12,599 bases of DNA from a virus (lineage: Duplodnaviria > Heunggongvirae > Uroviricota > Caudoviricetes): IMG/VR virus record IMGVR_UViG_3300050007_000314, positions 1 through 12,599 of that record, one strand, 5' to 3'. A program made the position numbers and the translations under genes. Of the stretch, positions 1 to 12,599 are shown piece by piece; within the stretch, counting starts at the first letter, position 1; every line of letters begins with the position of its first letter. Under the pieces are notes generated by a model. That model did no database searches and was not told the DNA's origin. It saw only the letters and a program-made list of their open reading frames with translations.

Positions 1-723
1 TAAGATCGCCCACATCAGCGGCTGTCGCCGCGCCCCCATACCCGTCAGCATAGTGGTGTAGAGCGAATCTGTGGGATGTTCGTGATACTCGTCGACAATC
101 GCACAGTGCGGTGAAGCGCCGTCACCAGGGTTACCAATCAGCGGCTCAAAACGCGCGCCATCCTCTGGCCGGTTCAGGTTGGACGCATTAACCTCGATCC
201 CGAACGCTTCCACCAGCAGCGGTGTACGCTTACACATCAGGCGAGCGGGTCTGAATACTTCCCACGCCTGCTTTTCAGTTGTGGCCCCGGAATATACTTC
301 AGCGCCAAACTCGTTATCACAGGTAAAACAGTACAGCGCCACACCCGCCGAAATAGCTGATTTCCCGTTTTTACGCGGTATCTCAGTGTAAACCTCGCGA
401 AAGCGACGAAGCTTCGAGCCTTTCTGGACCCAGCCAAAGGCGCAGCACACAATAAACAATTGCCATGCCTCCAGGGTTATCGGCATCCGCTTGAATGCCC
501 ACTCTCCTTTTGTATGTGGCAATAACTGGATAAATTTCGCAGCCTTTTCTGCCATGTCTTTATCGAAACGGTAACGAAATTTCTTACTCTTTTCAGCCGC
601 CATGTCATCGATATGACGCTGGCAGGCCTGAATGACAAACTGGCACGCCGGGATTTTCCCCCGCACAACGTTGCGGGCGTATTGATTCGCGGCGTTTACG
701 TTGGGGTACGATTTCCGGCTCAT
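1..723 (-). CDS. Phage terminase large subunit (TerL), N-terminal ~240 codons; gene runs off the left edge of the window
   Basis: Minus-strand frame is open from ATG at 721-723 to position 1 with no stop. It is absent from the ORF track only because it has no stop inside the window. Translation [29 protein letters not shown]...[20 protein letters not shown]...[35 protein letters not shown] has a Walker A-like NGKS and Walker B-like IVDEYHE, typical of terminase ATPase domains. Start ATG overlaps the terS stop (ATGA at 720-723). Confidence 0.85.
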
Positions 724-1217
724 GAGTTGATCATCTTCAGGAATGGGTTAGAGGTTTTCTTCTGTCCGGCAAGGCCGATCAGGCGTTGCCGGCTGCTGGG
801 GTCAAGGCCAAGCATGGAGCCGGTAGAGCTCATCTCCGATTCCTGCTCTTTCTTTGCGGTTAGCTCAGGGTTTTTTATCTTCCCTCCCATAGCACCAGTG
901 ATAGAAAGCCCATCTCTGGCGATATTTTTAACCGCCCTGCGCCAGAACTCGTAGGCAACACACCAGCGCTCAAGTACGGCAAGATCGGTAACACACAGTA
1001 ATCCCTGTCCACATAATTCTTTTGTGGTCAGTTCCCACATGATGGCCGCCATAGGCAGGCCGTCATCCTCAGAAAACCAGTCAGGTGGTGCCACACCTTT
1101 AATCGGTGTGAATACAGGTTCCTCTTTATTCAGAGCTCGTTTGCCGGGGTTCCCTGCCAGCTCCTTGCGCGCCGTTGGCTTGGGGCGACGCCCGGAACGC
1201 CCCGCCGTTCCAGCCAT
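720..1217 (-). CDS. Phage terminase small subunit, P27-family-like (TerS)
   Basis: ORF track 720..1226. N-terminus [27 protein letters not shown] matches the recalled P27-type TerS signature. The ATG at 1215-1217 is preferred over the GTG at 1226 because AGGAG lies about 8 nt upstream of it. It sits immediately upstream of terL with overlapping stop/start. Confidence 0.8.
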
Positions 1218-1343
1218 AAGCGACACTCCTGGTTAAATTTCATTTTTCGCGGGTATAAAAATACGAGGAGGCGGGCAGTCCGGAAGGCGCGCGGTCGCAG
1301 AGATTTGACCTCCCCCTACCCTGGCTGATGATGACATTAATTC
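1218..1343. other. HNH-terS intergenic region; candidate cos (cohesive end) site
   Basis: A 126-bp non-coding gap between the HNH endonuclease stop and the terS start, where HK97-like cos phages place cos. It contains a GC-rich core (gaggaggcgggcagtccggaaggcgcgcggtcgcagag, about 1265-1302) flanked by AT-rich sequence (gggtataaaaatac). Position and composition only; no cut site can be determined from sequence. Confidence 0.3.
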
Positions 1344-1694
1344 TCACTTGAGCCGCTCGCGCGCAGTCTTCGCTGCGTGACACGACCAGCACAGGCTCTC
1401 AAGGTTGCTGTCCTCATCAGTACCGCCGTGGGCCTTCGCCTTGATGTGGTCCACGCAGGACGCCTGCTTAACTATTGCCTGCCGTAGATGGTTCTGACAC
1501 AACCCCTTGTCGCGCTTAAGTATCCGCTCCCGGATGAATTCCCACTTTGTTCCGTATCCACGCTGCTGCCGTGATTGGCCTGGCTTGTAGGACTTCCAGC
1601 CTTCACCTTTGTGATTTTCACAGTAGCCAGATGGGTCTGTTGTGGTGTTCCGACAGCCGCGAACGCGACAAGCCTTCGGTGTGCGCGGTGGCAT
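1344..1694 (-). CDS. HNH endonuclease (phage packaging-associated)
   Basis: ORF track 1344..1733. Chosen start is ATG at 1692-1694 (MPPRTPKACRVRGC...), with GGGGAG about 5 nt upstream. Cys-rich N-terminal part (CRVRGCRNTTTDPSGYCENH) and an HNH core (CVDHIKAKAHGGTDEDSNLESLCWSCH). An HNH gene next to terS/terL is a well-known arrangement. Confidence 0.85.
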   Translation of the reverse strand: MPPRTPKACRVRGCRNTTTDPSGYCENHKGEGWKSYKPGQSRQQRGYGTKWEFIRERILKRDKGLCQNHLRQAIVKQASCVDHIKAKAHGGTDEDSNLESLCWSCHAAKTARERLK

Positions 1695-1758
1695 ATTCAC
1701 TCCCCAAAAAACGTATAGCATTATCGCAGACACTCAGTGAATGCCTGCTGTAATGCCG

Positions 1759-1962
1759 CTAGTCGTCGAGTTGTAACACACCGTGCTCAAGTGACTCGGA
1801 ATAGGCAATCAACCCGGTGTACTCAGGGATAACCTCACCATCATCAGCTTCGAATTCCGGGATTGTCCCAGTGGTGATGGTGTATTTGGGCTGACCATCT
1901 TCTTTCGCAAAGGCTGCCAGGTATTCAATCTGTTTTGCTGTAAGAACTACCGTCATGTTCAT
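1759..1962 (-). CDS. Hypothetical small acidic protein (67 aa)
   Basis: ORF with ATG start and GAGGA RBS-like motif about 6 nt upstream. Product is D/E-rich (MNMTVVLTAKQIEYLAAFAKEDGQPKYTITTGTIPEFEADDGEVIPEYTGLIAYSESLEHGVLQLDD). No family recognised. Confidence 0.5.
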   Translation of the reverse strand: MNMTVVLTAKQIEYLAAFAKEDGQPKYTITTGTIPEFEADDGEVIPEYTGLIAYSESLEHGVLQLDD

Positions 1963-1985
1963 TCCTCAGTTGTTAAAAAGCCCAG

Positions 1986-2219
1986 CTATTGCGAGGCTGT
2001 AATAATTTTATTTAGGCAGTTGAGCTGAACAGACCTGTTATGCGCCAGAATGTCCCGCTTCGTCTGTTTATCCAGCACGGCAATATCATGCTCAGTAAGG
2101 TAGATGATACTTACCCAGTCACAAGCCGTGTCCGTTACTTCAGGTTTTGCGGGTAAAGTTTTCGCGCAACTCGCGGTCAACATCGTCATCAGGAAGATGA
2201 TTAACAGTCTGCTGTACAT
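1986..2219 (-). CDS. Outer-membrane lipoprotein, putative o-spanin (Rz1-like), 77 aa
   Basis: Internal ATG at 2217-2219 with AAGGAG 7 nt upstream. N-terminus MYSRLLIIFLMTMLTASC has a lipoprotein signal peptide and lipobox Cys. The gene starts inside the preceding i-spanin-like gene in another frame and extends beyond it, the classic overlapped spanin layout. No sequence similarity to lambda Rz1 is claimed. Confidence 0.5.
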   Translation of the reverse strand: MYSRLLIIFLMTMLTASCAKTLPAKPEVTDTACDWVSIIYLTEHDIAVLDKQTKRDILAHNRSVQLNCLNKIITASQ

Positions 2220-2409
2220 CCCTGGCTCCTTTTGTTGTCTCCACCCGGCGTTCTGCAACGGCTTCAGTAGCTGCTGCGCGTTCCTCAGTGCGTTGCTGGT
2301 TAGCTTTTGTCTCAGCGATATTGGTACCGCGTGACTTACCCAGACCAAAAGCACCTGCAATTGCAGCCAGCACAGCAACAGCCAGGCCGAGAATCATTTC
2401 AAGTCCCAT
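2140..2409 (-). CDS. Putative i-spanin (Rz-like), 89 aa, N-terminal transmembrane anchor plus charged helical periplasmic domain
   Basis: ATG at 2407-2409 with GAGG about 6 nt upstream, directly after the endolysin stop. N-terminal hydrophobic segment MGLEMILGLAVAVLAAIAGAFGLG is followed by a charged, helix-prone region (ETKANQQRTEERAAATEAVAERRVETTKGARD). Shorter than a typical Rz, so the call is positional and structural only. Confidence 0.45.
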   Translation of the reverse strand: MGLEMILGLAVAVLAAIAGAFGLGKSRGTNIAETKANQQRTEERAAATEAVAERRVETTKGARDVQQTVNHLPDDDVDRELRENFTRKT

Positions 2410-2416
2410 AGTGACC

Positions 2417-3031
2417 TCACACCAGTGCGGCTTTAGCTTTGGCGTAACGTTCACGGCGGTCTTTAATGCCGTTCTGCCCGCCGTTAATAATTTGCGTGAC
2501 GCGTTCCACATCCCCCGAATAGAGGAGACAACCGCGTAACGTGAAGTACCATGCTGCCGAGCGGGCCGCGTGTCGCTCTTGCGTCAATAGTTCAGGAGTG
2601 CTCACAAGGTCAAGCTTCAGCGCTGTACCGCATTTGGTATAGTTCTCTCGGCCGGTGATTTGAAGCAGGCCGCGACCGCGATATTTCCAGCCATCACCCT
2701 GGCTGTTATTCCCCATGCGGTCACCGTAAACCAGATTGGCTATTTGTGGCTGGTGAGCGACTTGTTTACCATCGACACGCCCCAGCATTTCGCTCTGATA
2801 CGGCGTCAGGCGCTTACCGAAGGTTTTCTTCAGCCCTTCAACCGAGTAGTTAAAGTTCTCTACCAGCGAGGTAAAGCCATTGGATTCATGCCCAACTTGT
2901 GCAATGAACATGGCCTGATCATTAACCGCTGTAATTCCAAACTCTTTCATTGCCGCATCAATGTGCGGAAACCAGCGCGCAGAAAGCCCGGCGCTGATAC
3001 CAGCCGCCTGCTGAAATTGTGATTGGTTCAT
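2417..3031 (-). CDS. Endolysin, glycoside hydrolase family 19 (chitinase-like lysozyme)
   Basis: 204-aa ORF with ATG start and GAGG RBS. Contains the GH19 signature region GDGWKYRGRGLLQITGRENYTKCG. Sits between the holin-like genes and the spanin pair. Confidence 0.85.
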   Translation of the reverse strand: MNQSQFQQAAGISAGLSARWFPHIDAAMKEFGITAVNDQAMFIAQVGHESNGFTSLVENFNYSVEGLKKTFGKRLTPYQSEMLGRVDGKQVAHQPQIANLVYGDRMGNNSQGDGWKYRGRGLLQITGRENYTKCGTALKLDLVSTPELLTQERHAARSAAWYFTLRGCLLYSGDVERVTQIINGGQNGIKDRRERYAKAKAALV

Positions 3032-3033
3032 TA

Positions 3034-3312
3034 TTACCTCAGATGATCAACCAGCCGCGCTACGTTGCCCCTGACGGCGACCAGCACAGACAAGAAAATA
3101 ATGTTGGCCCCGATAGTGGCCCACGATGAATAAGGGTAGATACCGCACAGATAAGCCAGCGGAACCGCGCTATAGATGACCGTAAGCAGCCACGCTAAGC
3201 GAGATATCCACGGTCGATGTCGGGAATCACCACGGCGGTAAAACATCAGGGTCAGGACTACCCCAGCGCAAAGCAGCGCATTAATTGTTGCCGACGGGTC
3301 ATTTAGTACCAC
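3034..3312 (-). CDS. Holin-like small membrane protein (92 aa), second member of a holin/antiholin-like pair
   Basis: GTG start at 3310-3312 with GGGAGG about 6 nt upstream; 14-nt overlap with the upstream membrane-protein gene. Product has about 3 hydrophobic helices (INALLCAGVVLTLMFY, LAWLLTVIYSAVPLAYLCGIY, IGANIIFLSVLVAV) and a charged C-terminus. Lies immediately upstream of the endolysin. Confidence 0.6.
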   Translation of the reverse strand: MVLNDPSATINALLCAGVVLTLMFYRRGDSRHRPWISRLAWLLTVIYSAVPLAYLCGIYPYSSWATIGANIIFLSVLVAVRGNVARLVDHLR

Positions 3313-3685
3313 CTGAACCTCCCCGGCGCGTTATCAGCGCCACCAGCGAGCCGACATCCTGATTATTCAGGAACGTCAGGATTTTGACGGCTAAAGCAGA
3401 AACGATTACGGCGCCAATGGCATCCAGTGGTTTATCACTGTAGCCGGTCGCCTGAGCCAGCTTTGAACCCACCAGCCCGGAACAAAGGATCCCCGCGATA
3501 TACGACACCAGAAAATATGCCAGCCGACGCGTTGCACTCAGGTCAGCAGCCGTTGCAATGTAAAATACAGCTCCGGCAAATGCACCAAACACCACGCCAT
3601 AATCGGTTCCGGAAAGAAATCCATAGACGCTGGCCCCCGTCAGGACACCACCAGCCAGCCCAGTACCGGAAATCGGATCGGACAT
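3299..3685 (-). CDS. Holin-like membrane protein (128 aa), first gene of the lysis cassette
   Basis: ATG at 3683-3685 with GAGGGGG RBS. Gly/Ala-rich polytopic membrane protein (GLAGGVLTGASVYGFLSG..., VVFGAFAGAVFYIATA..., LAYFLVSYIAGILCSGLVG..., AIGAVIVSALAVKILTF). Function inferred from position; no specific family recognised. Confidence 0.55.
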   Translation of the reverse strand: MSDPISGTGLAGGVLTGASVYGFLSGTDYGVVFGAFAGAVFYIATAADLSATRRLAYFLVSYIAGILCSGLVGSKLAQATGYSDKPLDAIGAVIVSALAVKILTFLNNQDVGSLVALITRRGGSGGTK

Positions 3686-3728
3686 TTAGCCCCCTCTTAA
3701 TTGCTGTAAGTCCTCTCAGAATGAGGGG

Positions 3729-3757
3729 AATAAAAAAGGCCACCGAATGGCAGCCTT
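3729..3757 (-). terminator. Intrinsic terminator on minus strand, downstream of the 79-aa ORF and upstream of the lysis cassette
   Basis: Minus-strand reading AAGGCTGCC-ATTC-GGTGGCCTT: a 9-bp stem with two G-U pairs and a 4-nt loop, followed by TTTTTTATT. Confidence 0.5.
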
Positions 3758-3792
3758 AGTAAATGTTGTGTAGTGCTTTACTGGTAAATGCG

Positions 3793-4032
3793 TTATTGCT
3801 CATGGTCTTTTAAATAGTGATGCCCTTTGGAGGTAATTTCAGTTGCTATCCACGTACCATCACCGGATCTACTCTTAACAGCATTTACTAACCCTGCGTC
3901 AGCAAGATCAGAAATAGCAAAATTTACTGTTTCCTTTGGAATGAGCGGAAGTACTGAAGACTGAACCGCTTCATGTGGACCAAGAGCATTTACGCGACTC
4001 AGAATTTCGAAATGTACAGATGTGATTTTCAT
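3793..4032 (-). CDS. Hypothetical protein (79 aa), moron-like small gene between the Q-like gene and the lysis cassette
   Basis: ATG at 4030-4032 with GGAGG RBS. Flanked by an upstream promoter-like element and terminators on both sides. Local GC looks lower than in neighbouring structural genes. No family recognised (MKITSVHFEILSRVNALGPHEAVQSSVLPLIPKETVNFAISDLADAGLVNAVKSRSGDGTWIATEITSKGHHYLKDHEQ). Confidence 0.5.
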   Translation of the reverse strand: MKITSVHFEILSRVNALGPHEAVQSSVLPLIPKETVNFAISDLADAGLVNAVKSRSGDGTWIATEITSKGHHYLKDHEQ

Positions 4033-4067
4033 AGCACTGCCTCCGGTGGCTTGTTTTGACCAGCGGA

Positions 4068-4076
4068 ATTATAACA
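4068..4076 (-). promoter_or_regulatory. Candidate extended -10 promoter (TGtTATAAT) on minus strand; possible late promoter (PR-prime-like) or the small ORF's own promoter
   Basis: Minus-strand sequence TGTTATAAT (plus ATTATAACA, 4068-4076) matches the extended -10 consensus TGnTATAAT exactly, about 35 nt upstream of the 79-aa ORF start. No good -35 is needed for extended -10 promoters. Confidence 0.35.
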
Positions 4077-4111
4077 TATTGATTTTGACGTAGATTGAGT
4101 GCCAAAAGAGG

Positions 4112-4140
4112 TTAAAGAAAAACCCGCTCACAGGCGGGTT
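4112..4140 (-). terminator. Intrinsic terminator on minus strand downstream of the Q-like gene (tR-prime-like candidate)
   Basis: Minus-strand reading AACCCGC-CTGTGA-GCGGGTT followed by TTTTCTTTAA: a 7-bp GC-rich stem plus U-tract. On the plus strand the same hairpin lacks a comparable T-tract. Confidence 0.55.
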
Positions 4141-4233
4141 TATAGAACTTTGGCAACATATCAAATATGCTTCAAATATGGCTTATTTTGTTGCATTTTG
4201 CAAGCGCGTTTGAAGGAGATAGTGAAATTTACT

Positions 4234-4944
4234 TCACATTTCTGCCACTTTGAGGGCGTCTTCTTCCTCATAGTATTCAAGAGCCATGGCCAGCGCAGAT
4301 TCATCAAGCTGGGTAAAAGCGGCCTTTAACCCAGCCCAGTGCCCTGAATAGACGCGCAACCATGTCGAACGGTCAACGCTAACCATGCGGGCCAACGCTG
4401 CACTAGCATAGTCTTTATAGGTTTCATTATTTCTGGTTGCGGCAATTTCCTGCCCTGCCAGCCATACCAGGCCAATCAGTTTCTTTACTACGCGCTCCTG
4501 AAGGGAGTTATCACCCAGGCATTTCTGATAAGTTTTCCAGACGTATTCACACATCATCACCTGGTGCTTATAGCTAAGGTCAAAACCGTAGCAGTACCGC
4601 AACCAGGCCTGCTGGTATCCACTAAGCGCGGACACTGCCCTACGCCACGGCGCGGACTCAAATTCCGCATCTTTTATCGGCGGCATTGGCCTGCGGCGGC
4701 TGCGTGTTTCCAGTACATACAGTGGCGCGGAAAGCGAGTTAACAAAGCGTGGCCCCTTCTCTCCTTCGAGTTCGACGAGGTGAATTCCACGGCGCGGGGT
4801 GGCATTTTTGTCTGCTGGTGGGTGTTCACTGAAAGCCTCAAGCTGCCCTTTTGTTCCCCCAGAGAGGTCAGGTAGCGCGCGGCGCAATTCTATTCTTACA
4901 AAATTCAGGTCTTGTTGATTCATGCTTCTTTGCGCTCCATACAC
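4234..4944 (-). CDS. Putative late-gene antiterminator (Q-like), 229-236 aa
   Basis: ORF track 4234..4944 (GTG start; alternative ATG at 4921-4923 giving MNQQDLNFVR...). The call is positional: directly upstream of a promoter/terminator interval and the lysis cassette, downstream of a DUF968-like gene, as in many lambdoid prophages. No sequence similarity to lambda Q is claimed. Confidence 0.5.
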   Translation of the reverse strand: MYGAQRSMNQQDLNFVRIELRRALPDLSGGTKGQLEAFSEHPPADKNATPRRGIHLVELEGEKGPRFVNSLSAPLYVLETRSRRRPMPPIKDAEFESAPWRRAVSALSGYQQAWLRYCYGFDLSYKHQVMMCEYVWKTYQKCLGDNSLQERVVKKLIGLVWLAGQEIAATRNNETYKDYASAALARMVSVDRSTWLRVYSGHWAGLKAAFTQLDESALAMALEYYEEEDALKVAEM

Positions 4945-5940
4945 TTAAGCTTTCGCAATTACGCCGATCGACAGCGCCCGATCCATAAAACGCAGTAGCA
5001 GCTCAAGCTGCGTACCATGCTTCTGCTCGAATGCTGGTACATCGGCGTGTAACTCGTCGTGGCACTCTCTGCACAGAGGGATCACGAAGAGGTCATGGGC
5101 TTTTGTTGCTGTACCACCCATACCGTGCCCTACGATATGGTGCGGATCATCTGCTGGCCGTCGGCAACACTCACAGGGTTGTGTTTTAACCCAGCGGGTG
5201 TACGTCTCATTTACCCAGCGGCGACGTTTTGGCCTGAGCATAAAAGATTCCGGGGACTCCGGATCGACGGTTAGCGTCAGTATTGCCTTTTGGGTTTCCA
5301 CATCCAGGCTGTCAGACCGCCGAGCTGGTAACGTATCAATCGACCTGGCTTTTTCCTGCATAATGCTGATGGCCGGCGGCATAGGTACGATGTCACTTTC
5401 CCGGTAAACAGATAATAATGGTTCGTCTGGCAACCGAAGTGCCCGTTGCGCCATTCCTTCGGTGACAGCATCAGCGACACCAGACTGAACCGCCCACCAG
5501 CAAAGCTCGGCTAAAGAGAGGGAGCGCTCTTTGTTGTGGCCAAGCCCAACCAGTACGGTATCAACAATCCATTCGGCAACATTGCTCAGCGCAAGCGCCT
5601 GTAATCTCTCCGTTGACTGACCGCGCAATTTGTTATCGCAGTGCCAGCACACCACTAACGCGCCAGGAGGATGCCATAGTGTTGTTAGCTCGGCATGATG
5701 GTAGTCAGAAACAGGGTACTGACACTTTTTAACGCGCTGACGAAGCCAGTACTCAAGCCCGGCCATACCACCAGCAGCAGTAATTACCCGTTCATCGGTG
5801 AAGAAAGTGTGAAGGCTGGCATCCTCCAGTAGCGGTTGCCGTGCATCGGGGATCCGACCAGACGGAAGCCTGGCCATGTTTTCAGGCTCACGCTCAACGA
5901 GCACACGACCTGCAGGGGTAAGTAAGGCTCTCAATGCCAA
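4945..5940 (-). CDS. DUF968-like phage protein (YdfU-like) with C-terminal Cys/His HNH-like zinc-binding motif
   Basis: 331-aa ORF. C-terminal region PCECCRRPADDPHHIVGHGMGGTATKAHDLFVIPLCRECHDELH resembles an HNH/zinc-ribbon nuclease-like motif. Placement between the Nin-like region and the Q-like gene matches recalled DUF968 genes in lambdoid prophages. Start is uncertain: TTG at 5940 or ATG at 5875-5877. Confidence 0.6.
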   Translation of the reverse strand: MALRALLTPAGRVLVEREPENMARLPSGRIPDARQPLLEDASLHTFFTDERVITAAGGMAGLEYWLRQRVKKCQYPVSDYHHAELTTLWHPPGALVVCWHCDNKLRGQSTERLQALALSNVAEWIVDTVLVGLGHNKERSLSLAELCWWAVQSGVADAVTEGMAQRALRLPDEPLLSVYRESDIVPMPPAISIMQEKARSIDTLPARRSDSLDVETQKAILTLTVDPESPESFMLRPKRRRWVNETYTRWVKTQPCECCRRPADDPHHIVGHGMGGTATKAHDLFVIPLCRECHDELHADVPAFEQKHGTQLELLLRFMDRALSIGVIAKA

Positions 5941-5944
5941 CCCC

Positions 5945-6466
5945 TTATACCGTCAGATCTTTAAATTTCTGTACGGCCTTCCCCATATCCGCCATTGCAT
6001 CCACAAACTCATCAAACTTACGGCTTGCCATTCCATAAGCCTGTAGGATTTCAAGTTTCAGAGGATCGAGTTGTTTTTTGATTTCAGCTCGGTCACCGGC
6101 CTTTTTTTCAGCTTCTTCAGCGGCGCGAATGAGGGCTTCAGCCTGCTTGCGTAATTCTTCAGGGGTCACGGTTGACTTATTCATAGTGGCTTCCTTCAAT
6201 GGCTTCGACGACGCAATAACCGGCGCCACGGATTTATGACCAAATTTAGGGTGATGCAGGGTTGTTGTCCTGCCGTCATCAGTGACACAGAGCAGGCTGT
6301 TTTCGCGGATGATTTCGATCAGGGTTTCTTTATCCTTCCGACTCAACGAGCTATAAGCTGATACCTTGTGCGTCAGATGGGTAAGAGTTGCCCCATCGGG
6401 TTGTTTCTCAACAAACCGTTTAACCCTGGACAATACTGGCTGAAGGTGCGGAGGGGTCACTCTCAC
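5945..6466 (-). CDS. Hypothetical protein (173 aa), translationally coupled to the upstream antirepressor-like gene
   Basis: GTG start overlapping the stop of the upstream gene (GTGA at 6463-6466), with a G-rich RBS-like stretch upstream. C-terminal part is a charged, helix-prone region (EELRKQAEALIRAAEEAEKKAGDRAEIKKQLDPLKLEIL). No family recognised. Confidence 0.5.
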   Translation of the reverse strand: MRVTPPHLQPVLSRVKRFVEKQPDGATLTHLTHKVSAYSSLSRKDKETLIEIIRENSLLCVTDDGRTTTLHHPKFGHKSVAPVIASSKPLKEATMNKSTVTPEELRKQAEALIRAAEEAEKKAGDRAEIKKQLDPLKLEILQAYGMASRKFDEFVDAMADMGKAVQKFKDLTV

Positions 6467-7347
6467 TGGAGCCCCCCTGCTAAATCTTTGTCGTGGGTAA
6501 AACTACCGTTCCAGGTGACCTTCATCGGAAGCTTTCCCTTCAGGTAGTTTTTGTACAGCCAGACAGCGCCTTCGCGCAGCAAGACGGGCTGGTAGGAAGT
6601 AAAGCTCACTGCAGAGTTTGGCGATACTTTACTGCTTTTCTCGGTGAGGTATTTGTCGCGGGCATACGAGCGTACACGCCACTGTGCGCTGCGGCCTTCG
6701 GGATTGTCATCGTACAGCCAGTTAGCAGAGACAAGCCAGGCACTGATCTTGGAGGTATTCACACCATTCAGACGCTTACAGAACTGTACAGGGGAAAGCC
6801 CGTCAGTGAAGAGACTCTCGAGATGCTCGATATATTCGGCCTGCTGGTGGGTGAGTGCTTCAGCCTGCTGCTTTGCCTCCATAGCGTCCGCCCAGGCTCG
6901 CGCTAAAGTAATTGGATCAGACATATTGGGCAGCATGACACCGTGGACCTCACGAAGATTGAAGTAATGATCTTCAAGCTGTTCAAAGAAGTCCCAGGCT
7001 AATTCGGTTTCAAGCATTTTCGCATGGCGGGAAGCTCCACGCTCAGTCCAAAGAATAAGTGAAGTAGTGTGTTTATTAACCACATCGCTAAATGATAGTC
7101 GGAACGATTTCAGCTCATCACCAGTGATTTTGAAGAAGTGTTTACCCTCGACAAAGCGTTGCTCGTTTCGAGCGAAGTTTTGCTGAATTCTTACTGGTGT
7201 TGTGCCGTAACCGGCAGCAAGGGAATCCGTTGTCACTACGCGTTGATTGCGATAGGTGATCACCGGAACCGACGAGTGATTAACGGAAATTACTGATGAA
7301 GTGCTATTTTCGGGCGTAGCAGTGCCCCTAACATGATGATTGCTCAT
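6463..7347 (-). CDS. Phage antirepressor/regulatory protein (Rha/ORF6N-like N-terminal domain, KilA-C-like C-terminal region)
   Basis: ORF track 6463..7452. I favour the ATG at 7345-7347 (MSNHHVRGTATPE..., GGAGAG RBS), but the ATG at 7450-7452 also has an RBS-like AGAGGTGG and would overlap rusA by 19 nt. N-terminal region VITYRNQRVVTTDSLAAGYGTTPVRIQQNFARNEQRFVEGKHFFKITGDELKSF resembles phage Rha/antirepressor N-domains from memory; C-terminal half is helical. Family assignment is from recall, not search. Confidence 0.5.
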   Translation of the reverse strand: MSNHHVRGTATPENSTSSVISVNHSSVPVITYRNQRVVTTDSLAAGYGTTPVRIQQNFARNEQRFVEGKHFFKITGDELKSFRLSFSDVVNKHTTSLILWTERGASRHAKMLETELAWDFFEQLEDHYFNLREVHGVMLPNMSDPITLARAWADAMEAKQQAEALTHQQAEYIEHLESLFTDGLSPVQFCKRLNGVNTSKISAWLVSANWLYDDNPEGRSAQWRVRSYARDKYLTEKSSKVSPNSAVSFTSYQPVLLREGAVWLYKNYLKGKLPMKVTWNGSFTHDKDLAGGLQ

Positions 7348-7433
7348 ATTCTCTCCATACTCTGATTGTTGCGACGAGCCTGCACGCCCGTTTCGCTTGC
7401 ACTTTCCGACATTACTGCCATATCGACCAATAT

Positions 7434-7832
7434 TCAACCCACAGCTGGACATATAACCACCTCTTTTTTATATGCCGTTATGGTTATCTCAACTTTTCCC
7501 TTCGGTACTATTGGTCCCCATTCCACCAGCATGCGCTTAATCTGGCTGTCGTCTTCCCAGACACCCGCATGCGTCAGCGCGTCAAACAGGGCTTTGTTGT
7601 AATTATCGATATCCCGACGGCGCGCATCCGGTGGGTACAGAGTGATTTCTACCGCTGCCAGTTCAGTCGATGGCTTCGGGAGACGTCGTAATTGCTCAAT
7701 GATCGCCACGCAGGCAGCGCTCTGGTATTTACGACCATCAGAGCTAATGAGGTGACGACCGGCCAGCGGCCCCTTGTTAGGGGCGCGCCAGTAAGTGTTC
7801 ACGCTCGGAGGAAAAGGCAGGATAAGTTTCAC
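7434..7832 (-). CDS. rusA: Holliday junction resolvase RusA (crossover junction endodeoxyribonuclease)
   Basis: 132-aa product MKLILPFPPSVNTYWRAPNKGPLAGRHLISSDGRKYQ...DIDNYNKALFDALTHAGVWEDDSQI is the characteristic RusA sequence pattern. GTG start overlaps the stop of the upstream methyltransferase (GTGA); GGGGAGAGG RBS. Confidence 0.9.
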   Translation of the reverse strand: MKLILPFPPSVNTYWRAPNKGPLAGRHLISSDGRKYQSAACVAIIEQLRRLPKPSTELAAVEITLYPPDARRRDIDNYNKALFDALTHAGVWEDDSQIKRMLVEWGPIVPKGKVEITITAYKKEVVICPAVG

Positions 7833-8707
7833 GCGGCCTCTCCCCGCATATTGCGAACAAGTTCAGAAGCTGCAGTAATGATTTCGCTGGTGGCCGTTCG
7901 TTCCAGCCAGAGTTGATTTATGTTGGCTTTCAGCTTGTTCTGCTGAGCCTCACTCAATACGTCAACGCCTTCCACTTGGTTGAACACAAGACCAACCTCG
8001 AGAGGCCAGATACGTGACTCAGTTTCCGGTGTTGCTGCTGGTTCCATGGCTGCCTGCATTGCGATTGTTTGCTCTTTACTAACGGCGAATTGAGCCAAAG
8101 CCATAAATGCCCGCCCTTTTTCCTCCAGTTCTGTGCGGTTGATATAGCTGAACCGCTCACCCCGCCACGACTTATCGAATACAGCTATGGCACCGGCAAA
8201 AAACGCGCTGGTGGGTTTCTGTTTTTCGTCAGCAGGTACAAACCACACAGGCAGATCGAACCCAATACGACCACGAATAAACATGATGTGATCGGCATCT
8301 TCCGGCCACCATGTTTCACTTGTGGCAGACTTCACCAGGTAAATATAGCGACCACCTCTTTCACGCATGTCCATGGTGTGATTCATGATGTGTGTCATAC
8401 CCGTAATCGCCTGCTTGTCGTGATACTGGGAGCGGCTATATGGAGGGTTGGCAAAAGCCGCGCCGCCCAGTTCATCCAGACGTTCAGACCAGTTCTGTGT
8501 CAGCGCGTTATCTTCGGCGGTGTACCATGCCGGACACTTCGCGTTATCGTCGTCAGCAAACAGGTCCAGAACTAATGGACCAAATAGCGCGTTGATCCCC
8601 CAGAAAAGCAGATCCGGTGTCCGCCACTGATCGCCAACTTCTTTCAATTCGTGGGCTGGTTGGCTACGTAGTGCCGCCAGCGCCTGGCAATATTTGTTTA
8701 ACGTCAT
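7829..8707 (-). CDS. Phage DNA N6-adenine methyltransferase (Dam-family) with a ~100-aa C-terminal extension
   Basis: 292-aa ORF whose ATG start overlaps the stop of the replication gene (ATGA). N-terminal two-thirds has the phage Dam-type pattern (WRTPDLLFWGINALFGPLVLDLFA ... AAFANPPYS, with the NPPY catalytic motif). C-terminal ~100 aa (RTELEEKGRAFMALAQFAVSKEQ...) is unassigned. Confidence 0.8.
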   Translation of the reverse strand: MTLNKYCQALAALRSQPAHELKEVGDQWRTPDLLFWGINALFGPLVLDLFADDDNAKCPAWYTAEDNALTQNWSERLDELGGAAFANPPYSRSQYHDKQAITGMTHIMNHTMDMRERGGRYIYLVKSATSETWWPEDADHIMFIRGRIGFDLPVWFVPADEKQKPTSAFFAGAIAVFDKSWRGERFSYINRTELEEKGRAFMALAQFAVSKEQTIAMQAAMEPAATPETESRIWPLEVGLVFNQVEGVDVLSEAQQNKLKANINQLWLERTATSEIITAASELVRNMRGEAA

Positions 8708-9561
8708 CCTCTGAACCCCGCAGGAATCGTTGTATCAACCGGACCAAAAGCCATCACATCGCGCTTTTTCGCACCCCAGTCAGCGCGTTTAGGCCGTCCT
8801 TTCTGATCCCAGCGGGTAGCGCTTTGCAGATAGCTCTCGAATTTCTTCGGGCCAAACAGCGTTTCCGGCCTCATGTACTGGTACTGCTCGTCGTTCTCGT
8901 GCCAGTGCTCATGCTTCAGGTCGATAACCAGTTGCAGGTCTGCAACGCTGTACCCCTCACGCAGTCGGGCACGGATGTTCTCCAGGGAGGTTTTTGATTT
9001 CTGATACCGGGATCCGCTGATCTGGTTCAAATGGGACAAAACCAAAATCGCCTGGTCAGTAATCACGACTTCAGGGTCTGGTTGCGCCGCAACCGGACAA
9101 GAGGGTTTTGAAGTTACTTGTGGATCTTGTGTTGATTTTACTGACGGATCCCCGCCAGATTCTGACGGGTCAAAACCGCCGTTTTTGCCAGATTTCGACG
9201 GGTCAGTTTTTGAGGCGTCAAATTTTGATGCGTCAGATTTTGACGTGTCAGAATCTGACAGTTGAGAAAATGCGGCAGCCTGAAGTTTCGCCACATTCAG
9301 ACGATACACGTTCGAAGCATTACGGTTACCATTACGGCGCTGTGTACGCGTGAGCCAGCCATCTTTTTCAAGCTTAGCGATTGCCGTTCTGATAGTGCTC
9401 GGCCCTGCGCCAAGCTGACGAGCAATAGTTTCAATGGACGGCCAGCACACCCCCTCATCGCTGCTGAAATCAGCAAGGCGAGCCATGATCGCGACACTAG
9501 ACAACTTCATGCCCGACGCCGCGCAACCATCCCATACGTAGCCGGTTAATTTAGTGCTCAT
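8704..9561 (-). CDS. Replication initiator protein (lambda O-like role): N-terminal HTH domain, low-complexity acidic Ser/Asp/Lys linker, conserved phage replication C-terminal domain
   Basis: 285-aa ORF with ATG at 9559-9561. N-terminal winged-HTH-like region (LSSVAIMARLADFSSDEGVCWPSIETIARQLGAGPSTIRTAIAKLEKDGWLTR), a central repeat linker SDSDTSKSDASKFDASKTDPSKSGKNGGFDPSESGGDPS, and a C-terminal block (ITDQAILVLSHLNQISGSRYQKSKTSLENIRARLREGYSVADLQLVIDLKHEHWHENDEQYQYMRPETLFGPKKFESYL) recalled as the conserved C-terminus of phage replication initiators. Iteron-like DNA repeats are embedded in the linker-coding region. Confidence 0.7.
   Translation of the reverse strand: MSTKLTGYVWDGCAASGMKLSSVAIMARLADFSSDEGVCWPSIETIARQLGAGPSTIRTAIAKLEKDGWLTRTQRRNGNRNASNVYRLNVAKLQAAAFSQLSDSDTSKSDASKFDASKTDPSKSGKNGGFDPSESGGDPSVKSTQDPQVTSKPSCPVAAQPDPEVVITDQAILVLSHLNQISGSRYQKSKTSLENIRARLREGYSVADLQLVIDLKHEHWHENDEQYQYMRPETLFGPKKFESYLQSATRWDQKGRPKRADWGAKKRDVMAFGPVDTTIPAGFRG
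9137..9265. repeat. Iteron-like tandem direct repeats inside the replication initiator gene; candidate origin of replication
   Basis: Plus-strand tandem units at about 15-bp spacing: GCGTCAAATTTTGAT (9215-9229), GCGTCAGATTTTGAC (9230-9244), GTGTCAGAATCTGAC (9245-9259). Looser copies lie upstream (ACTGACGGATCC at 9140-9151, TCTGACGGGTCA at 9161-9172, TCGACGGGTCAG at 9195-9206). AT-richer flank at about 9100-9140. Analogous to ori-lambda iterons inside gene O. Confidence 0.5.
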
Positions 9562-9902
9562 GATCGTCCGTTATCTCCCTGAATTTTTGCCTGAAATGCT
9601 CAAGTGGGCTGAAGCATTCGTGCGGGTAGCCATCACGCAGATAGATAACGCGCTGTGTTTCTGGCTCCCAGCGGATAACACGGACTGGCACTCCGCGGTG
9701 GTCTTTGAACCTTCGGTTAAGTTCGCGCACAGGCGTTTTGCCCTCCGGTTGTAGACCCCCACAATTGAAACCGCCCTACTGTGGTTACACGGAACCCAGC
9801 GGTTTGATAATCTGCGCTCATACCGAAACAACGGAGTACCCGAAACCGGGATCATCCTTAGTTGCGGTAGACGGTTAAAAGCCGTTAAACTGCTCATGCG
9901 GA

Positions 9903-10454
9903 TTATTTCTCCATACTCGAAGAGTTGTTCGCCAAGGCGCCCGGAGCTGCACACTCGCGGGCGTCACTCTTTTCTGGAAGGCAATAAACTCGTGAAATCA
10001 GGTTCAGGAACGTCATAAGCGTTACCCGGAACTGGTAGGCGATTTCATTCAGACTGTCCCACTCCCCTTTATCAACTACACCATCATCGATGTATCGACG
10101 GTATGCGTTGACCAGATCCCCAAGCCTGCCCACCAGCTCAGCCAGCTTTAAGCCAATTTCTTCGTTCTCTGTTTCTGGTGCTGCGCCAGGGATATGAATC
10201 CCGTTATCTGTTTGACGAGAAAACGCATCTGCTATGTAGCTAACACCGGCGGCTTTCTGTAGCACCATCGCCCATCCCATAGGGAAGATCTGATCCCCAT
10301 CCACACGAAGGCGGTTAAACAATGCGTTCTCTGTCACGCCCAACCATTCCGCAGCCTCAGCATATCCACCAGGCAGATCGGTAATCGTTTTTTTAATCGC
10401 TACCACCAGCCAAGAAGGCTGACGTTCAACTTTCCAAATAGGTTCGTTACCCAC
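9903..10454 (-). CDS. HTH regulator in the cII position (cII/YdaT-like, putative), 183 aa
   Basis: ORF track 9903..10559 would overlap the cro-like gene by 77 nt. I prefer the in-frame GTG at 10452-10454 with AAGGGG 6 nt upstream (MGNEPIWKVERQPSWLVVAIKK...). Helix-turn-helix-like segment GGYAEAAEWLGVTENALFNRLR. Gene order cro-like then this gene then replication initiator parallels lambda cro-cII-O. Function inferred from position and the HTH only. Confidence 0.4.
   Translation of the reverse strand: MGNEPIWKVERQPSWLVVAIKKTITDLPGGYAEAAEWLGVTENALFNRLRVDGDQIFPMGWAMVLQKAAGVSYIADAFSRQTDNGIHIPGAAPETENEEIGLKLAELVGRLGDLVNAYRRYIDDGVVDKGEWDSLNEIAYQFRVTLMTFLNLISRVYCLPEKSDARECAAPGALANNSSSMEK
9936..9977 (+). 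terminator. Possible plus-strand intrinsic terminator antisense to the 3-prime end of the cII-like gene (OOP-like antisense RNA terminator candidate)
   Basis: Plus-strand GGCGCCCGGAG-ctgcaca-CTCgCGGGCGTC (stem about 10 bp with a 1-nt bulge) followed by ACTCTTTTCT. The T-tract exists only on the plus strand. No convincing promoter was found upstream, so this is low confidence. Confidence 0.25.
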
Positions 10455-10482
10455 GGTTAACCCCTTAATTCTGTGGTTACAA

Positions 10483-10725
10483 TTACGCTGCTGAATCTTT
10501 AATCTTTTGAAAAATATCAGGACGTAATTTCTCTCTTGAAACTCCGGTGACCTTTTCAATTAGCGCTGATAGTTTTGCTGGTGGTTTTTTCTCTCTGTTC
10601 AGCCAGTTCCAGACCTGCTGTTGTTTCACTAACCGCCCAGAACTAGCGGTAAGCTTGCGCGCTAACTCTGATTGGCCACCAGCCAGAGCGATTGCCTCTG
10701 AAAGGGCTAACTGCTCGGGAGTCAT
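10483..10725 (-). CDS. Cro-like HTH repressor (YdaS-like, Cro/CI family), 80 aa
   Basis: ORF track 10483..10743 (TTG). I prefer the ATG at 10723-10725 with AGGAG 7 nt upstream (MTPEQLALSEAIALAGGQSELARKLTASSGRLVKQQQVWNWLNREKKPPAKLSALIEKVTGVSREKLRPDIF). The GGQS-x-LAR-x-L ... V-x-QW ... LRPDI pattern matches recalled YdaS/Cro-like proteins. Divergent from the cI-like gene across an operator-rich intergenic region. Confidence 0.7.
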   Translation of the reverse strand: MTPEQLALSEAIALAGGQSELARKLTASSGRLVKQQQVWNWLNREKKPPAKLSALIEKVTGVSREKLRPDIFQKIKDSAA

Positions 10726-10861
10726 AGTTTTCTCCTGTATCAATACATAAAAGTTGTTGCCGATAGAGATTATACAACCTCAACAACTTTTATCACAACT
10801 TTTAGGTGTTGGAAAGCTAAAACATAAAGTTGTAATCTCACCGTAAATAAGGGGGGAAGTT
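10726..10861. promoter_or_regulatory. OR-like divergent promoter/operator region between the cro-like and cI-like genes
   Basis: Four copies of an 8-bp half-site in inverted orientations: AAAGTTGT at 10750-10757 and 10826-10833, ACAACTTT at 10783-10790 and 10795-10802. Minus-strand promoter candidate: -35 TTGTGA, 18-bp spacer, perfect -10 TATAAT (plus 10769-10774). Plus-strand candidate for cI: TTGGAA (10809-10814), 16-bp spacer, TGTAAT (10831-10836). Both overlap the half-sites. Confidence 0.6.
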
Positions 10862-11548
10862 GTGAACACACTGGCGGAAAGACTGAAAGTTGCGAGAGAA
10901 AAAACAGGGTTAAGCCAAGCTCAACTCGCTGAATCAATAGGTGTTTCTCAACAATCCGTAGCAAAAATAGAAAACGGAGATACGTTGCAACCGCGAAAGA
11001 TAAAAGAAATCGCAAATGTATTAGGCGTTAGCCAAAAGTGGTTGCAACTAGGCATTGAGGAAAATGCTTCACTTTCTGATTTTGTGGTTGGAGAGGCTGA
11101 AAGTGCCAGTTTAGACCCTGCCATTTTCGCTGACATACCAGTACTAGATGTAGAGTTATCAGCAGGAAATGGTTGTGAAGCCGAAATTGTAGAGTCTGTA
11201 ATTGACTGGTTTCCTATCCGAAGAATGGATCTAAGGAAAGCTGGAGTCAGCGCTTCAAATGCTAGGATCGTAAAAATTTGGGGGAACAGCTTATTGCCAG
11301 TTCTCAATAACGGCGATCATGTTGCTGTTGATATCGCACAGACAAACCCTATTCGAGATGGCGATTTATACGCTGTCAGAGATGGGGTCCTGCTAAGGGT
11401 CAAAGTGCTAATAAACCAACCTGATGGTGGTTTAATTATAAGAAGCTTCAACAAAGATGAGTATCCAGATGAAATACTCACCTTCAATGAACGCCGCGCA
11501 AGAATTCATGTTATCGGCAGGGTGTTTTGGTCATCACGTTCATGGTAA
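10862..11548 (+). CDS. cI-like prophage repressor (N-terminal XRE-type HTH, C-terminal S24 LexA-like autopeptidase domain)
   Basis: 228-aa ORF with GTG start and a G-rich RBS (AAGGGGGG) about 5 nt upstream. N-terminal HTH LSQAQLAESIGVSQQSVAKIENGD; C-terminal S24-like region with the Ser motif in KIWGNSLLPVLNNGDHVAVD and a downstream Lys (LLRVKVL). Only substantial plus-strand gene in the window; AT-rich. Confidence 0.9.
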   Translation: MNTLAERLKVAREKTGLSQAQLAESIGVSQQSVAKIENGDTLQPRKIKEIANVLGVSQKWLQLGIEENASLSDFVVGEAESASLDPAIFADIPVLDVELSAGNGCEAEIVESVIDWFPIRRMDLRKAGVSASNARIVKIWGNSLLPVLNNGDHVAVDIAQTNPIRDGDLYAVRDGVLLRVKVLINQPDGGLIIRSFNKDEYPDEILTFNERRARIHVIGRVFWSSRSW

Positions 11549-12421
11549 TACGCCAAATAACATTTCCTCTGAGATAATTTTTAGCTTTGCGCCATTATCG
11601 TCGCGATAGCTAACAGCTTTCTCTATCTTTCTCCCGTGGCTGGAAAATTTCCAGTCTCTGGATGATAGGGTTCCGACTACAAGGAAGTCCAGTTTTTGGG
11701 TAATTCCATTACTTATTTTCCCCCCTGCACTTTTGATCCGTTCCTCTACCACCGCTCGCTTACCTGCCATAAAGGTACCCGTTAAACAGTAGGTTTTGTC
11801 CGTAAGATCAACGACTACATTATTATCAATCGGTAGCCTCGTCGCCAATCCATCAACAACACCGCTATCTAGATCGCATCCAGTAAAGTCAACAAGTGCT
11901 TTATGTAGAGTTTCGCTTTCTTCTGGAGTTATTACCCCATCGTTAAGGATATCTTTTATTAGAATGTACAAATCCTTCCCTGGGTAGTTACTCTTAAGAG
12001 CCCCATTTTGTGTTAACCACCAGTCGAGATATCTAATTTCATCTTCCGTCAAGGTCCTATCCGAGATCAGCCCTTTACACAATCCACTAAGAAGATGTAG
12101 ATCCATTTCAGCAGAATAAAAATCAATTCCAGGAATATCTAAAATTTCTCTTTGGATTTTTGTCAGACTGTTTTTGAGTTCTTTTCTTTCTTCCTCTGTA
12201 ATCACCCCATCAGCTAAAATATCTGAGACCCTCGCCGATAGACTCTTAATAACCCCATTTCTTATAATTTGATTTGCTTCAAGTAGCCATGTGTCAAGGT
12301 AAAGAACTTCCTCATCTCTTACCACCCCATCAGCAACAATACCATCAATGATACTGATTAGGTTCGCAAACAACTTATCTCTATTGTGTGTGTAATTAAA
12401 TACGTAAAGCTTGTCTTCCAT
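11540..12421 (-). CDS. Accessory protein of unknown function: N-terminal TerB-like repeat region plus C-terminal BRCT-like domain (293 aa)
   Basis: ATG at 12419-12421 with AGGAGG 5 nt upstream. Four repeats of an ADG-type helix motif (IIDGIVADGVVRDEEVLYL, VSDILADGVITEEERKEL, GLISDRTLTEDEIRYL, IKDILNDGVITPEESETL) resembling TerB domains. C-terminal DKTYCLTGTFMAGKRAVVEERIKSAGGKISNGITQKLDFLVVG...AKLKIISEEMLFGVL resembles the BRCT domain of NAD-dependent DNA ligases. GC roughly 35-40 percent by eye. Convergent with cI, 9-nt 3-prime overlap. Confidence 0.7.
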   Translation of the reverse strand: MEDKLYVFNYTHNRDKLFANLISIIDGIVADGVVRDEEVLYLDTWLLEANQIIRNGVIKSLSARVSDILADGVITEEERKELKNSLTKIQREILDIPGIDFYSAEMDLHLLSGLCKGLISDRTLTEDEIRYLDWWLTQNGALKSNYPGKDLYILIKDILNDGVITPEESETLHKALVDFTGCDLDSGVVDGLATRLPIDNNVVVDLTDKTYCLTGTFMAGKRAVVEERIKSAGGKISNGITQKLDFLVVGTLSSRDWKFSSHGRKIEKAVSYRDDNGAKLKIISEEMLFGVLP

Positions 12422-12476
12422 ACAGCCTCCTCTTTTTTATACATCCTTGCATTCATCTCATCTTCAATCAAACCAC

Positions 12477-12522
12477 ATAAAGTTGTTGACATTGTGTTTC
12501 ACCACAACTAAATTACAACTTA
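12477..12522 (+). promoter_or_regulatory. PL/OL-like promoter-operator: plus-strand promoter pointing out of the window, overlapped by repressor half-sites
   Basis: -35 TTGACA (12486-12491), 17-bp spacer, -10 TAAATT (12509-12514). Half-site copies overlap it: ATAAAGTTGTTG (12477-12488), ACAACTA (12504-12510), ACAACTT (12515-12521). ACATAAAGTTGT occurs here and in the OR region. Confidence 0.5.
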
Positions 12523-12599
12523 AAGGTGTTAACCAACAGCGAACAGGCAGGACGCACATGAAGTAGCCGCCGGTGGCATATGAATAACCGGATGATTCC

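Follow-up and report, generated by a model that had tools for sequence, protein, structure and literature searches.

We examined the junction between two convergent genes, a plus-strand cI-type repressor gene and a minus-strand accessory gene for a BRCT-domain protein, in a lambdoid prophage of the Caudoviricetes (IMG/VR virus record IMGVR_UViG_3300050007_000314, positions 1 to 12,599; this stretch of 12,599 nucleotides (nt) is called the window below). The two genes overlap at their stop codons, and a hairpin followed by a U-rich tract, as read on the accessory strand, lies inside the cI coding sequence (11447-11482, cI codons 196-208), 57-91 nt beyond the accessory stop codon, with the stem starting 57 nt after that stop. 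This element is most likely a terminator of the accessory gene that is embedded in cI, as predicted from its sequence and conservation: it combines a stable stem-loop, a U-rich tract 3' of the stem and a site downstream of a stop codon on the same strand, as intrinsic terminators do.

A conserved terminator-like hairpin within the cI coding sequence

A simple consensus terminator scan found nothing between the two stop codons or near the junction, and the hairpin was found by a custom scan for hairpins with a T-tract, which replaced the consensus scan. On the minus-strand RNA the hairpin reads 5'-GGUGAGUAU-UUCAUCUGG-AUACUCAUC-3' (11482-11456), with a calculated free energy (ΔG) of -10.2 to -10.4 kcal/mol. 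We then scanned both strands of the whole 1.9-kb module blindly in 23 lineages that share less than 97% nucleotide identity, and one hairpin with a T-tract alone was conserved in position: the present one, located on the minus strand (tail at 11445-11459) and found in 20 of the 23 lineages (mean ΔG of -9.5). Metagenomic relatives in which the accessory protein is just 58-61% identical also retain the hairpin. A search of Rfam identified no family near the junction or OL (the left operator region).

The same stretch of cI is constrained at synonymous positions. The mean synonymous pair-difference in cI was 0.555, and windows from codons 194-203 gave the lowest values in the gene (0.22-0.36), as compared to 0.47-0.67 elsewhere, apart from the start codon, where the value fell to 0.39. 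The minimum of 0.217 was reached in only 0.01% of 20,000 permutations of codon columns (p about 1e-4). Codons forming the stem and tail were nearly fixed, namely Lys198 AAA (23/23), Tyr201 TAC (22/23), Glu200 GAG (21/23) and Leu206, for which one of six possible Leu codons, CTC, was kept in 21 of 23 lineages; the loop codon Pro202 varied freely. An alternative-frame open reading frame (ORF) at 11457-11609 on the plus strand was considered as a source of this dip and was rejected, as the dip spans just about 45 nt.

The element also differs between the two strands. The hairpin was more stable as minus-strand than as plus-strand RNA in 20 of 23 lineages (mean of -9.2 versus -6.1 kcal/mol), because U-G pairs lengthen the stem in the minus-strand RNA and correspond to C-A mismatches in the plus-strand RNA. 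Furthermore, a TTTRTT tail was present on the minus side in every lineage and absent from the plus side. The position of the element, its synonymous constraint, its codon pattern and its strand asymmetry together indicate that it is under selection. The original prediction for this junction had stated that no terminator separates the two genes, which is literally true of the interval between the stop codons, but overlooked this conserved hairpin inside cI.

The tail-to-tail overlap is conserved and its length drifts

Searches of GTDB genomes and IMG/VR recovered 76 cI-bearing loci with the accessory protein as query and 80 with cI. The genes overlapped in 75 of the 76 loci from the accessory-protein search, the exception (L078) having a frameshifted accessory gene, and in all 65 loci from the cI search with an intact accessory gene, where the overlap was 9, 15 or 18 nt long. 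An intergenic spacer between cI and the accessory gene was found in none of the loci with an intact accessory gene. As the overlap occurs in every intact locus, it is a conserved feature of the family and not a coincidence in one sequence.

In the window, the position of the 9-nt overlap (11540-11548) and of both stop codons had been predicted exactly, and both ORFs are genuine genes by their family matches and full-length homologues; cI homologues (59-99% identity) align across residues 1-228, and accessory homologues align end to end across residues 1-293. Within the overlap the two genes are in exact antisense register, codon against codon: the cI stop TAA lies opposite accessory Leu292 (TTA), cI Trp228 (TGG) opposite Pro293 (CCA), and cI Ser227 (TCA) opposite the accessory stop TGA. 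Among relatives the column of the cI stop is fixed and the accessory stop shifts by 0, 2 or 3 codons, and the only determinant of the overlap length is which of the Ser codons of the cI tail (S-S-R-S/T-W) reads TCA, and hence TGA on the opposite strand. Because the length drifts with these Ser codons, the overlap appears to be a by-product of packing with no sign of tuning. A conserved topology with a drifting length thus argues for a consequence of packing rather than a tuned signal, as judged from these alignments, and the overlap by itself is ordinary compaction of a phage genome. The two transcripts must overlap at their 3' ends, as had been predicted, because each mRNA must contain its own stop codon, which makes both mRNAs complementary there.

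The 3' end of the cI transcript

No plus-strand hairpin with a T-tract downstream of cI was conserved in the blind scan of the 23 lineages. The accessory gene likewise had no synonymous dip like that in cI, its lowest values outside the first 10 codons being 0.41-0.43, no lower than expected from the permutations of cI (mean minimum of 0.39), with no separate permutation for the accessory gene. A weak terminator candidate for the cI transcript inside the accessory gene (11668-11699) was common only to the closest relatives, L022 and L076, and was not conserved across the family. A palindrome, CTGGAAAATTTCCAG (11640-11654), was rejected as a terminator, since it is not kept as a hairpin in relatives.

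Without a conserved intrinsic terminator behind cI, transcription of the repressor gene is likely to continue for some way across the accessory gene in the antisense direction. The plus-strand RNA beyond the cI stop codon is untranslated, and its C/G ratio was 1.1-3.6 in 20 of 21 80-nt windows and 0.85 in the remaining one; the segment at 11709-11788 contains 36% C and 11% G. Untranslated RNA richer in C than in G has the composition typical of Rho-dependent termination of antisense RNA. A Rho-dependent end of the cI transcript is plausible on the basis of this composition.

Operators and promoters of the module

The window contains seven matches to the operator word ACAACTWWWW, as compared to 0.41 expected by chance, with four located between cI and the divergent cro-like gene (the right operator region, OR) and three just past the start of the accessory gene. 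The excess of matches over chance identifies this second cluster as the left operator region (OL). With a divergent cro-type gene, operators at two flanking sites and consensus matches for the promoters PR and PL, the locus has the features of a lambdoid immunity region.

Upstream of the accessory gene the lineages share a TTGATT adjoining the operator OL1, then TG-n-AAGGAT, and then a Shine-Dalgarno sequence, and the conserved promoter-like blocks with their spacer are present in 21 of the 23 lineages. The spacer between the putative -35 and -10 elements varies in sequence and is fixed in length at 17 nt, and conserved blocks around a variable spacer of fixed length are the signature of a promoter. 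The geometry of this putative accessory promoter and that of the putative promoter for repressor maintenance (PRM) are identical (12443-12486 and 10795-10838, respectively), each consisting of ACAAC, 15 nt to the -35 element, a 17-nt spacer and a -10 element. This matching layout points to a regulatory design that was duplicated between OR and OL or arose there by convergence. Repressor bound at the operator OL1 would overlap the -35 element of PL and would lie at about position -43 relative to the accessory promoter, and lambda cI at OR2 holds a comparable position relative to PRM. By this analogy in layout, cI at OL1 may activate the accessory gene. The original prediction had suggested that accessory-gene expression could respond to cI transcription (the lysogenic state), or the reverse; coupling to lysogeny most likely comes from cI protein acting at OL1 with the geometry seen at PRM, which is the more direct route and a better, simpler account than antisense effects.

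Proposed model and alternative explanations

With slightly better than even confidence, we favor as a whole the explanation that OR, cI, the accessory gene and OL make up a compact immunity module of the lambdoid kind and are inherited together as a unit, with the accessory terminator in cI and the accessory promoter coupled to the operators. According to this model, the absence of intergenic room would have led to the accessory terminator being written into the cI coding sequence, where the hairpin at 11456-11482 and the UUUGUU sequence that follows it (11455-11447) would terminate the accessory mRNA roughly 90 nt beyond the stop codon. The resulting 3' untranslated region (UTR) of about 90-100 nt would lie antisense to roughly the final 33 codons of the repressor gene. 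The hairpin would thereby probably restrict the antisense reach of the accessory transcript into cI to about 100 nt and keep convergent polymerases off most of cI and off PRM, and in this respect it appears to insulate cI and PRM, and not to serve interference. The cI transcript would end inside the accessory gene, in the antisense orientation, either through Rho or at weak, lineage-specific hairpins such as that at 11668-11699. Finally, cI bound at OL1, just upstream of the accessory -35 element, would tie accessory expression to lysogeny.

Several observations weigh against this explanation. The stem of the hairpin is AU-rich, with three or four G-C pairs, its U-tract is interrupted by G or A, and the consensus terminator scan did not call it; the hairpin would be a moderate terminator at best. 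Covariation is weak, with two pairs showing double changes and 49 of 500 shuffles reaching the observed score, and the RNAalifold consensus of the hairpin contains only seven pairs. As this covariation is too slight to prove a structure, the support for the element comes from conservation, in the synonymous-site and strand-asymmetry tests, and not from compensatory change. The 23 lineages are also kin, so the significance of the strand asymmetry is not independent evidence, and the hairpin is weak or lost in Tatumella/Rosenbergiella-type lineages (L004, L005, L189 and L203). At the accessory promoter, the -10 element AAGGAT matches the consensus poorly, and a stricter consensus scan missed this promoter.

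These weaknesses leave room for the element in codons 196-208 to be something other than a terminator, such as a stabilizing 3' stem-loop, an RNase processing site, a DNA-binding palindrome or a signal for translation or folding of cI, in which case the overlap would be neutral. Synonymous constraint proves that an element acts at the level of the nucleic acid and not what it does, and besides the weak covariation, modest stem and interrupted U-tract, its core is a perfect DNA palindrome (GAGTAC-N9-GTACTC). However, the element lies 57 nt past a convergent stop codon, has an invariant TTTRTT tail in only one orientation, gains stability from G-U pairs in the minus-strand RNA and allows its loop codon to vary freely; moreover, no operator word or promoter consensus is present at the element, and no alternative-frame ORF covers just that stretch. 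We consider such a role rather unlikely. That the overlap itself arose as an artefact of ORF calling, with one ORF not being a gene or ending sooner, is so improbable as to be nearly negligible, for although the ORF lists were made mechanically and cI starts with GTG, both proteins match known families and have full-length homologues that align to the last residue, both C-termini are conserved, and RefSeq annotates the same pair in E. coli with an 18-nt overlap.

We weighed in the same way the idea that neither transcript is terminated near the junction, and that long convergent read-through causes collisions of polymerases, sense-antisense duplexes or both, by which the two genes would regulate each other. 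The overlap is real and conserved, cI is without a conserved intrinsic terminator, and approximately 100 nt of both mRNAs would be complementary even with a working hairpin. There are also precedents, as read-through of a convergent terminator places an S24 repressor under antisense control at S. aureus lexA/sbrB (PMC8745188), and head-on collisions help termination between convergent genes (bioRxiv 10.1101/2022.10.23.513370). Nevertheless, we judge mutual regulation to be quite unlikely: the conserved hairpin and U-tract on the accessory strand argue that selection limits read-through into cI instead of exploiting it, the length of the overlap is not conserved, the two putative promoters, separated by about 1.6 kb, both seem weak, in contrast to the closely placed convergent promoters of 186 and P2, where interference is strong, and the operator-linked promoter geometry would couple the accessory gene to lysogeny more simply. 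Of the interference or antisense coupling originally proposed, the 3' complementarity and a likely read-through from cI therefore stand, whereas the accessory transcript is probably ended by the hairpin in cI.

A more elaborate version of the favored model can be imagined, in which OR, cI, the BRCT gene and OL form a self-contained, lysogeny-dependent circuit. Here cI would activate the accessory gene from a PRM-like OL promoter, and the embedded terminator would deliberately set the 3' UTR, antisense to the region encoding the C-terminus of cI, at about 100 nt, and this UTR would feed back through RNase III or polymerase collision on the repressor level and so on the threshold of induction. 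The BRCT protein, through binding of DNA ends or phospho-ligands, would then be a new sensor of superinfection or DNA damage common to lambdoid, P2-like and other temperate phages. We regard this circuit as speculative and very unlikely to hold in full.

The accessory BRCT protein

The accessory protein matched the Pfam BRCT family (PF00533) with 29.9 bits, above the gathering cut-off of 21.3, and PHROG 3989 across its full length (2e-119). Its AlphaFold model (mean predicted local distance difference test (pLDDT) score of 66.8) has two helical modules, at about residues 10-93 and 104-180, and a C-terminal BRCT domain at residues 205-290, where pLDDT is mostly 73-89 with one dip to 54 at residues 251-260. 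Foldseek searches returned only BRCT domains (RFC1, LigA, XRCC1 and Rad4). Sequence and predicted structure agree on a BRCT fold for the C-terminus. Positions T214-G215 and K221-R222, which bear on a possible binding of phosphate-bearing ligands (a phosphopeptide or a 5'-P DNA end), are conserved. Searches of PDB sequences, of PADLOC and of Pfam with the N-terminal region indicated no function beyond the BRCT domain. PADLOC matched the protein only weakly and in part, to the candidate PDC-S48 (1.3e-6, residues 152-253), and gave no significant full-length match that would place the protein in a known defense system.

Natural loss-of-function variants of the gene were also found. An internal deletion that joins the first 8 or so codons to the last 40 or so was present in 14 of 80 cI-bearing loci (in-frame in L145), and other losses were due to a CAA-to-TAA nonsense mutation at codon 242 or to a frameshift. 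The deletion loci keep the accessory promoter and OL, and cI and the embedded hairpin are intact in the loss-of-function variants. These deletions, nonsense mutations and frameshifts indicate that the accessory gene is dispensable. Examples of such variants are located at L145:3187-3410, L158:3187-3330, L142:3335 and in L128 and L078.

Homologues of the accessory protein adjoin repressors of the 186/P2 type (Phage_CI_repr with Phage_CI_C) or with HTH_3 and S24 domains, including that of Vibrio phage K139 (L079, 2771-4349). In K139 the homologue, orf2, is 32% identical, directly follows cI and is co-transcribed with it in the annotated lysogenic operon (GenBank). In three other loci, from metagenomic contigs (L184, L192 and L197, around 900-2400), homologues follow a 186-type CI or S24-type repressor gene at a distance of 11-46 nt and in the same orientation. 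Repressor linkage of the accessory gene thus extends to at least three architectures, and a search of the literature found no characterized BRCT prophage protein or K139 orf2. In the manner of rexAB in lambda, the gene seems, by analogy, to behave as a repressor-linked accessory gene, and it is a good candidate for expression in the lysogenic state with a role, for example, in exclusion, defense or control of induction.

Comparison with known systems

In lambda, cI, rexA and rexB lie between OR and OL, and rexAB is co-directional with cI, is transcribed from PRM and has a terminator before OL. The module described here resembles this immunity region in having an accessory gene between cI and OL, operator regions with multiple operators and the outward promoters PR and PL. 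However, its accessory gene is inverted, overlaps the cI stop codon and apparently has its own OL-linked promoter and a terminator within cI, and its BRCT protein is unrelated to RexAB. Lambda OOP, a dedicated non-coding RNA of 77 nt that is transcribed from a promoter of its own and acts via RNase III on cII, provides a second comparison, as in both cases the 3' end of a lambdoid regulatory mRNA is complementary to a convergent transcript. Here, both partners are mRNAs, one of them pairing through its antisense 3' UTR, and any effect of the pairing is hypothetical; no separate promoter was found near the junction, in contrast to a cis-antisense RNA of the OOP/cII type.

The cI-orf2-glo-int unit of Vibrio phage K139 is similar in that the homologue adjoins the repressor and the annotation describes transcription of the unit in lysogens. 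However, this phage is P2-like and encodes a CI of the 186 type, and its orf2 is co-directional, 25 nt downstream of cI, with no convergent overlap. The S. aureus lexA/sbrB pair likewise places an S24-family repressor tail to tail with a small neighbor whose terminator sets the antisense cover, but that terminator is intergenic, is weakened by natural mispairs and has an effect that was shown experimentally (PMC8745188), whereas the hairpin described here is inside the repressor ORF, conserved and predicted from sequence. Coliphage 186 also has convergent transcription units in its lysis-lysogeny switch, as does P2, and in 186 face-to-face promoters 62 bp apart yield overlapping 5' ends (PMC5001618). 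In the window the putative start sites are about 1.6 kb apart (at about 10845 and about 12436), the overlap is between 3' ends, and a terminator-like element lies between the promoters, an arrangement unlike that of pR/pL interference in 186. Bidirectional or overlapping terminators of convergent genes (bioRxiv 10.1101/2022.10.23.513370; PMC13500782) share the order of A-run, hairpin and U-run with little or no spacer, and differ from the present element in that it is located in the coding sequence of one partner and appears to be one-directional, as indicated by its stability and U-tract.

Comparable cases to this junction, including S. aureus lexA/sbrB, lambda OOP/cII and the bidirectional terminators of convergent genes, are therefore known, and neither the embedded terminator nor the linkage of the BRCT protein alters current understanding of lysogeny control. 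What the predicted element illustrates is that a terminator can be written into a repressor coding sequence by the choice of synonymous codons where intergenic space is absent, which calls for caution with terminator predictors that skip coding regions and in the recoding of phage genes. An uncharacterized BRCT protein that is tied to prophage repressors in unrelated architectures, and here apparently has an operator-coupled promoter, is in turn worth testing.

Genomic context

The features of the module are listed in Table 1. The cI protein has an N-terminal helix-turn-helix (HTH) domain (HTH_3, 1.6e-14) and a C-terminal S24 autocleavage domain (Peptidase_S24, 1.5e-13) in Pfam, with LSAGNG as the Ala-Gly cleavage motif. 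On the minus strand is a PR-type operon encoding a cro-like protein of the YdaS family, a CII-like protein, a replication protein, Dam, RusA, an ORF6N protein, a DUF968 protein, antiterminator Q, holin, endolysin and the small terminase. The CII-like gene (9903-10559, minus strand) is of the YmfL/phrog_101 type, with a Pfam CP76 match under its cut-off. No lambda-type CII site (TTGC-N6-TTGC) was found near cro/cII, and the establishment promoter (PRE) of cI was therefore not located.

Table 1. Coordinates of features of the immunity module in the window
Feature	Position	Strand	Details
Terminator-like element of the accessory transcript	11447..11491	-	Within cI codons 196-210
A-run upstream of the hairpin	11483-11491	-	Part of the terminator-like element
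Stem-loop, arms GGUGAGUAU / AUACUCAUC	11456-11482	-	Loop includes the third position of Pro202
U-tract UUUGUUGAA (contains UUUGUU)	11455-11447	-	Directly 3' of the stem
Tail-to-tail overlap, 9 nt	11540..11548	both	Exact antisense codon register; from ORF listing and translation
Weak terminator candidate for the cI transcript, GGGTTCC..GGAAGTCC then AGTTTTTGG	11668..11699	+	Inside the accessory gene, 120-150 nt beyond the cI stop
cI-type repressor gene, 228 aa	10862..11548	+	GTG start; stop TAA 11546-11548; HTH_3 and Peptidase_S24
Accessory gene, 293 aa	11540..12421	-	ATG start; stop TGA at 11542-11540 (TCA on +); BRCT and PHROG 3989
cro-like gene (YdaS-type HTH)	10483..10743	-	Listed ORF start TTG 10743; likelier start ATG 10727
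OR, four operator copies	10748..10833		10748-10757 (-), 10783-10792 (+), 10795-10804 (+), 10824-10833 (-); conservation 0.85-0.96
OL, three operator copies	12473..12530		12477-12486 (-), 12504-12513 (+), 12515-12524 (+); conservation 0.77-0.86
PR-like promoter	10769..10798	-	TTGTGA-18-TATAAT; drives cro; consensus scan
PL-like promoter	12486..12514	+	TTGACA-17-TAAATT; outward from the module, overlapped by OL operators; consensus scan
Putative PRM	10810..10838	+	TGGAAA 10810-10815, 17-nt spacer, TAATCT 10833-10838; directly downstream of operator 10795
Putative accessory promoter	12443..12471	-	-35 TTGATT 12471-12466, 17-nt spacer, TG 12451-12450, -10 AAGGAT 12448-12443
Accessory Shine-Dalgarno sequence GAGGAGG	12432-12426	-	Between the putative promoter and ATG

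The closest protein match was from Citrobacter freundii (98%). Prophages like CPS-53 in E. coli have the same arrangement at about 76% nucleotide identity, and the pair is named there in RefSeq as "XRE family transcriptional regulator" and "BRCT domain-containing protein". By megablast, the module had no close relative in the phage collection. The otherwise enterobacterial cI-BRCT module was also observed in a 760-kb contig labelled Pseudomonas lundensis (L003, JAWQUI010000002.1), with an accessory protein that is 77% identical; it is possible that this assembly is mislabelled or contaminated, or that the module jumped hosts.

Directly after PL, we observed a structured RNA of about 62 nt (12529-12599), which is cut by the end of the window and is present in full in L001 (8085-8150) and other loci. 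An outer stem (GCGAACA/UGAUUCGC) encloses two inner hairpins. The RNA recalls putL of HK022 (PMC9378689) in position and size, but no sequence similarity was found, as blastn gave no match to HK022 and the supplements of the put paper contained no sequence match; Rfam likewise had no match to the RNA. In the second inner hairpin, three pairs show compensatory changes among nine distinct sequences, and copies with 78-97% identity were found, mostly in unannotated DNA, in many temperate phages, among them ST64B, SfV, SfII, SfIV, mEp460, mEp237, ZF40 and phiNP.

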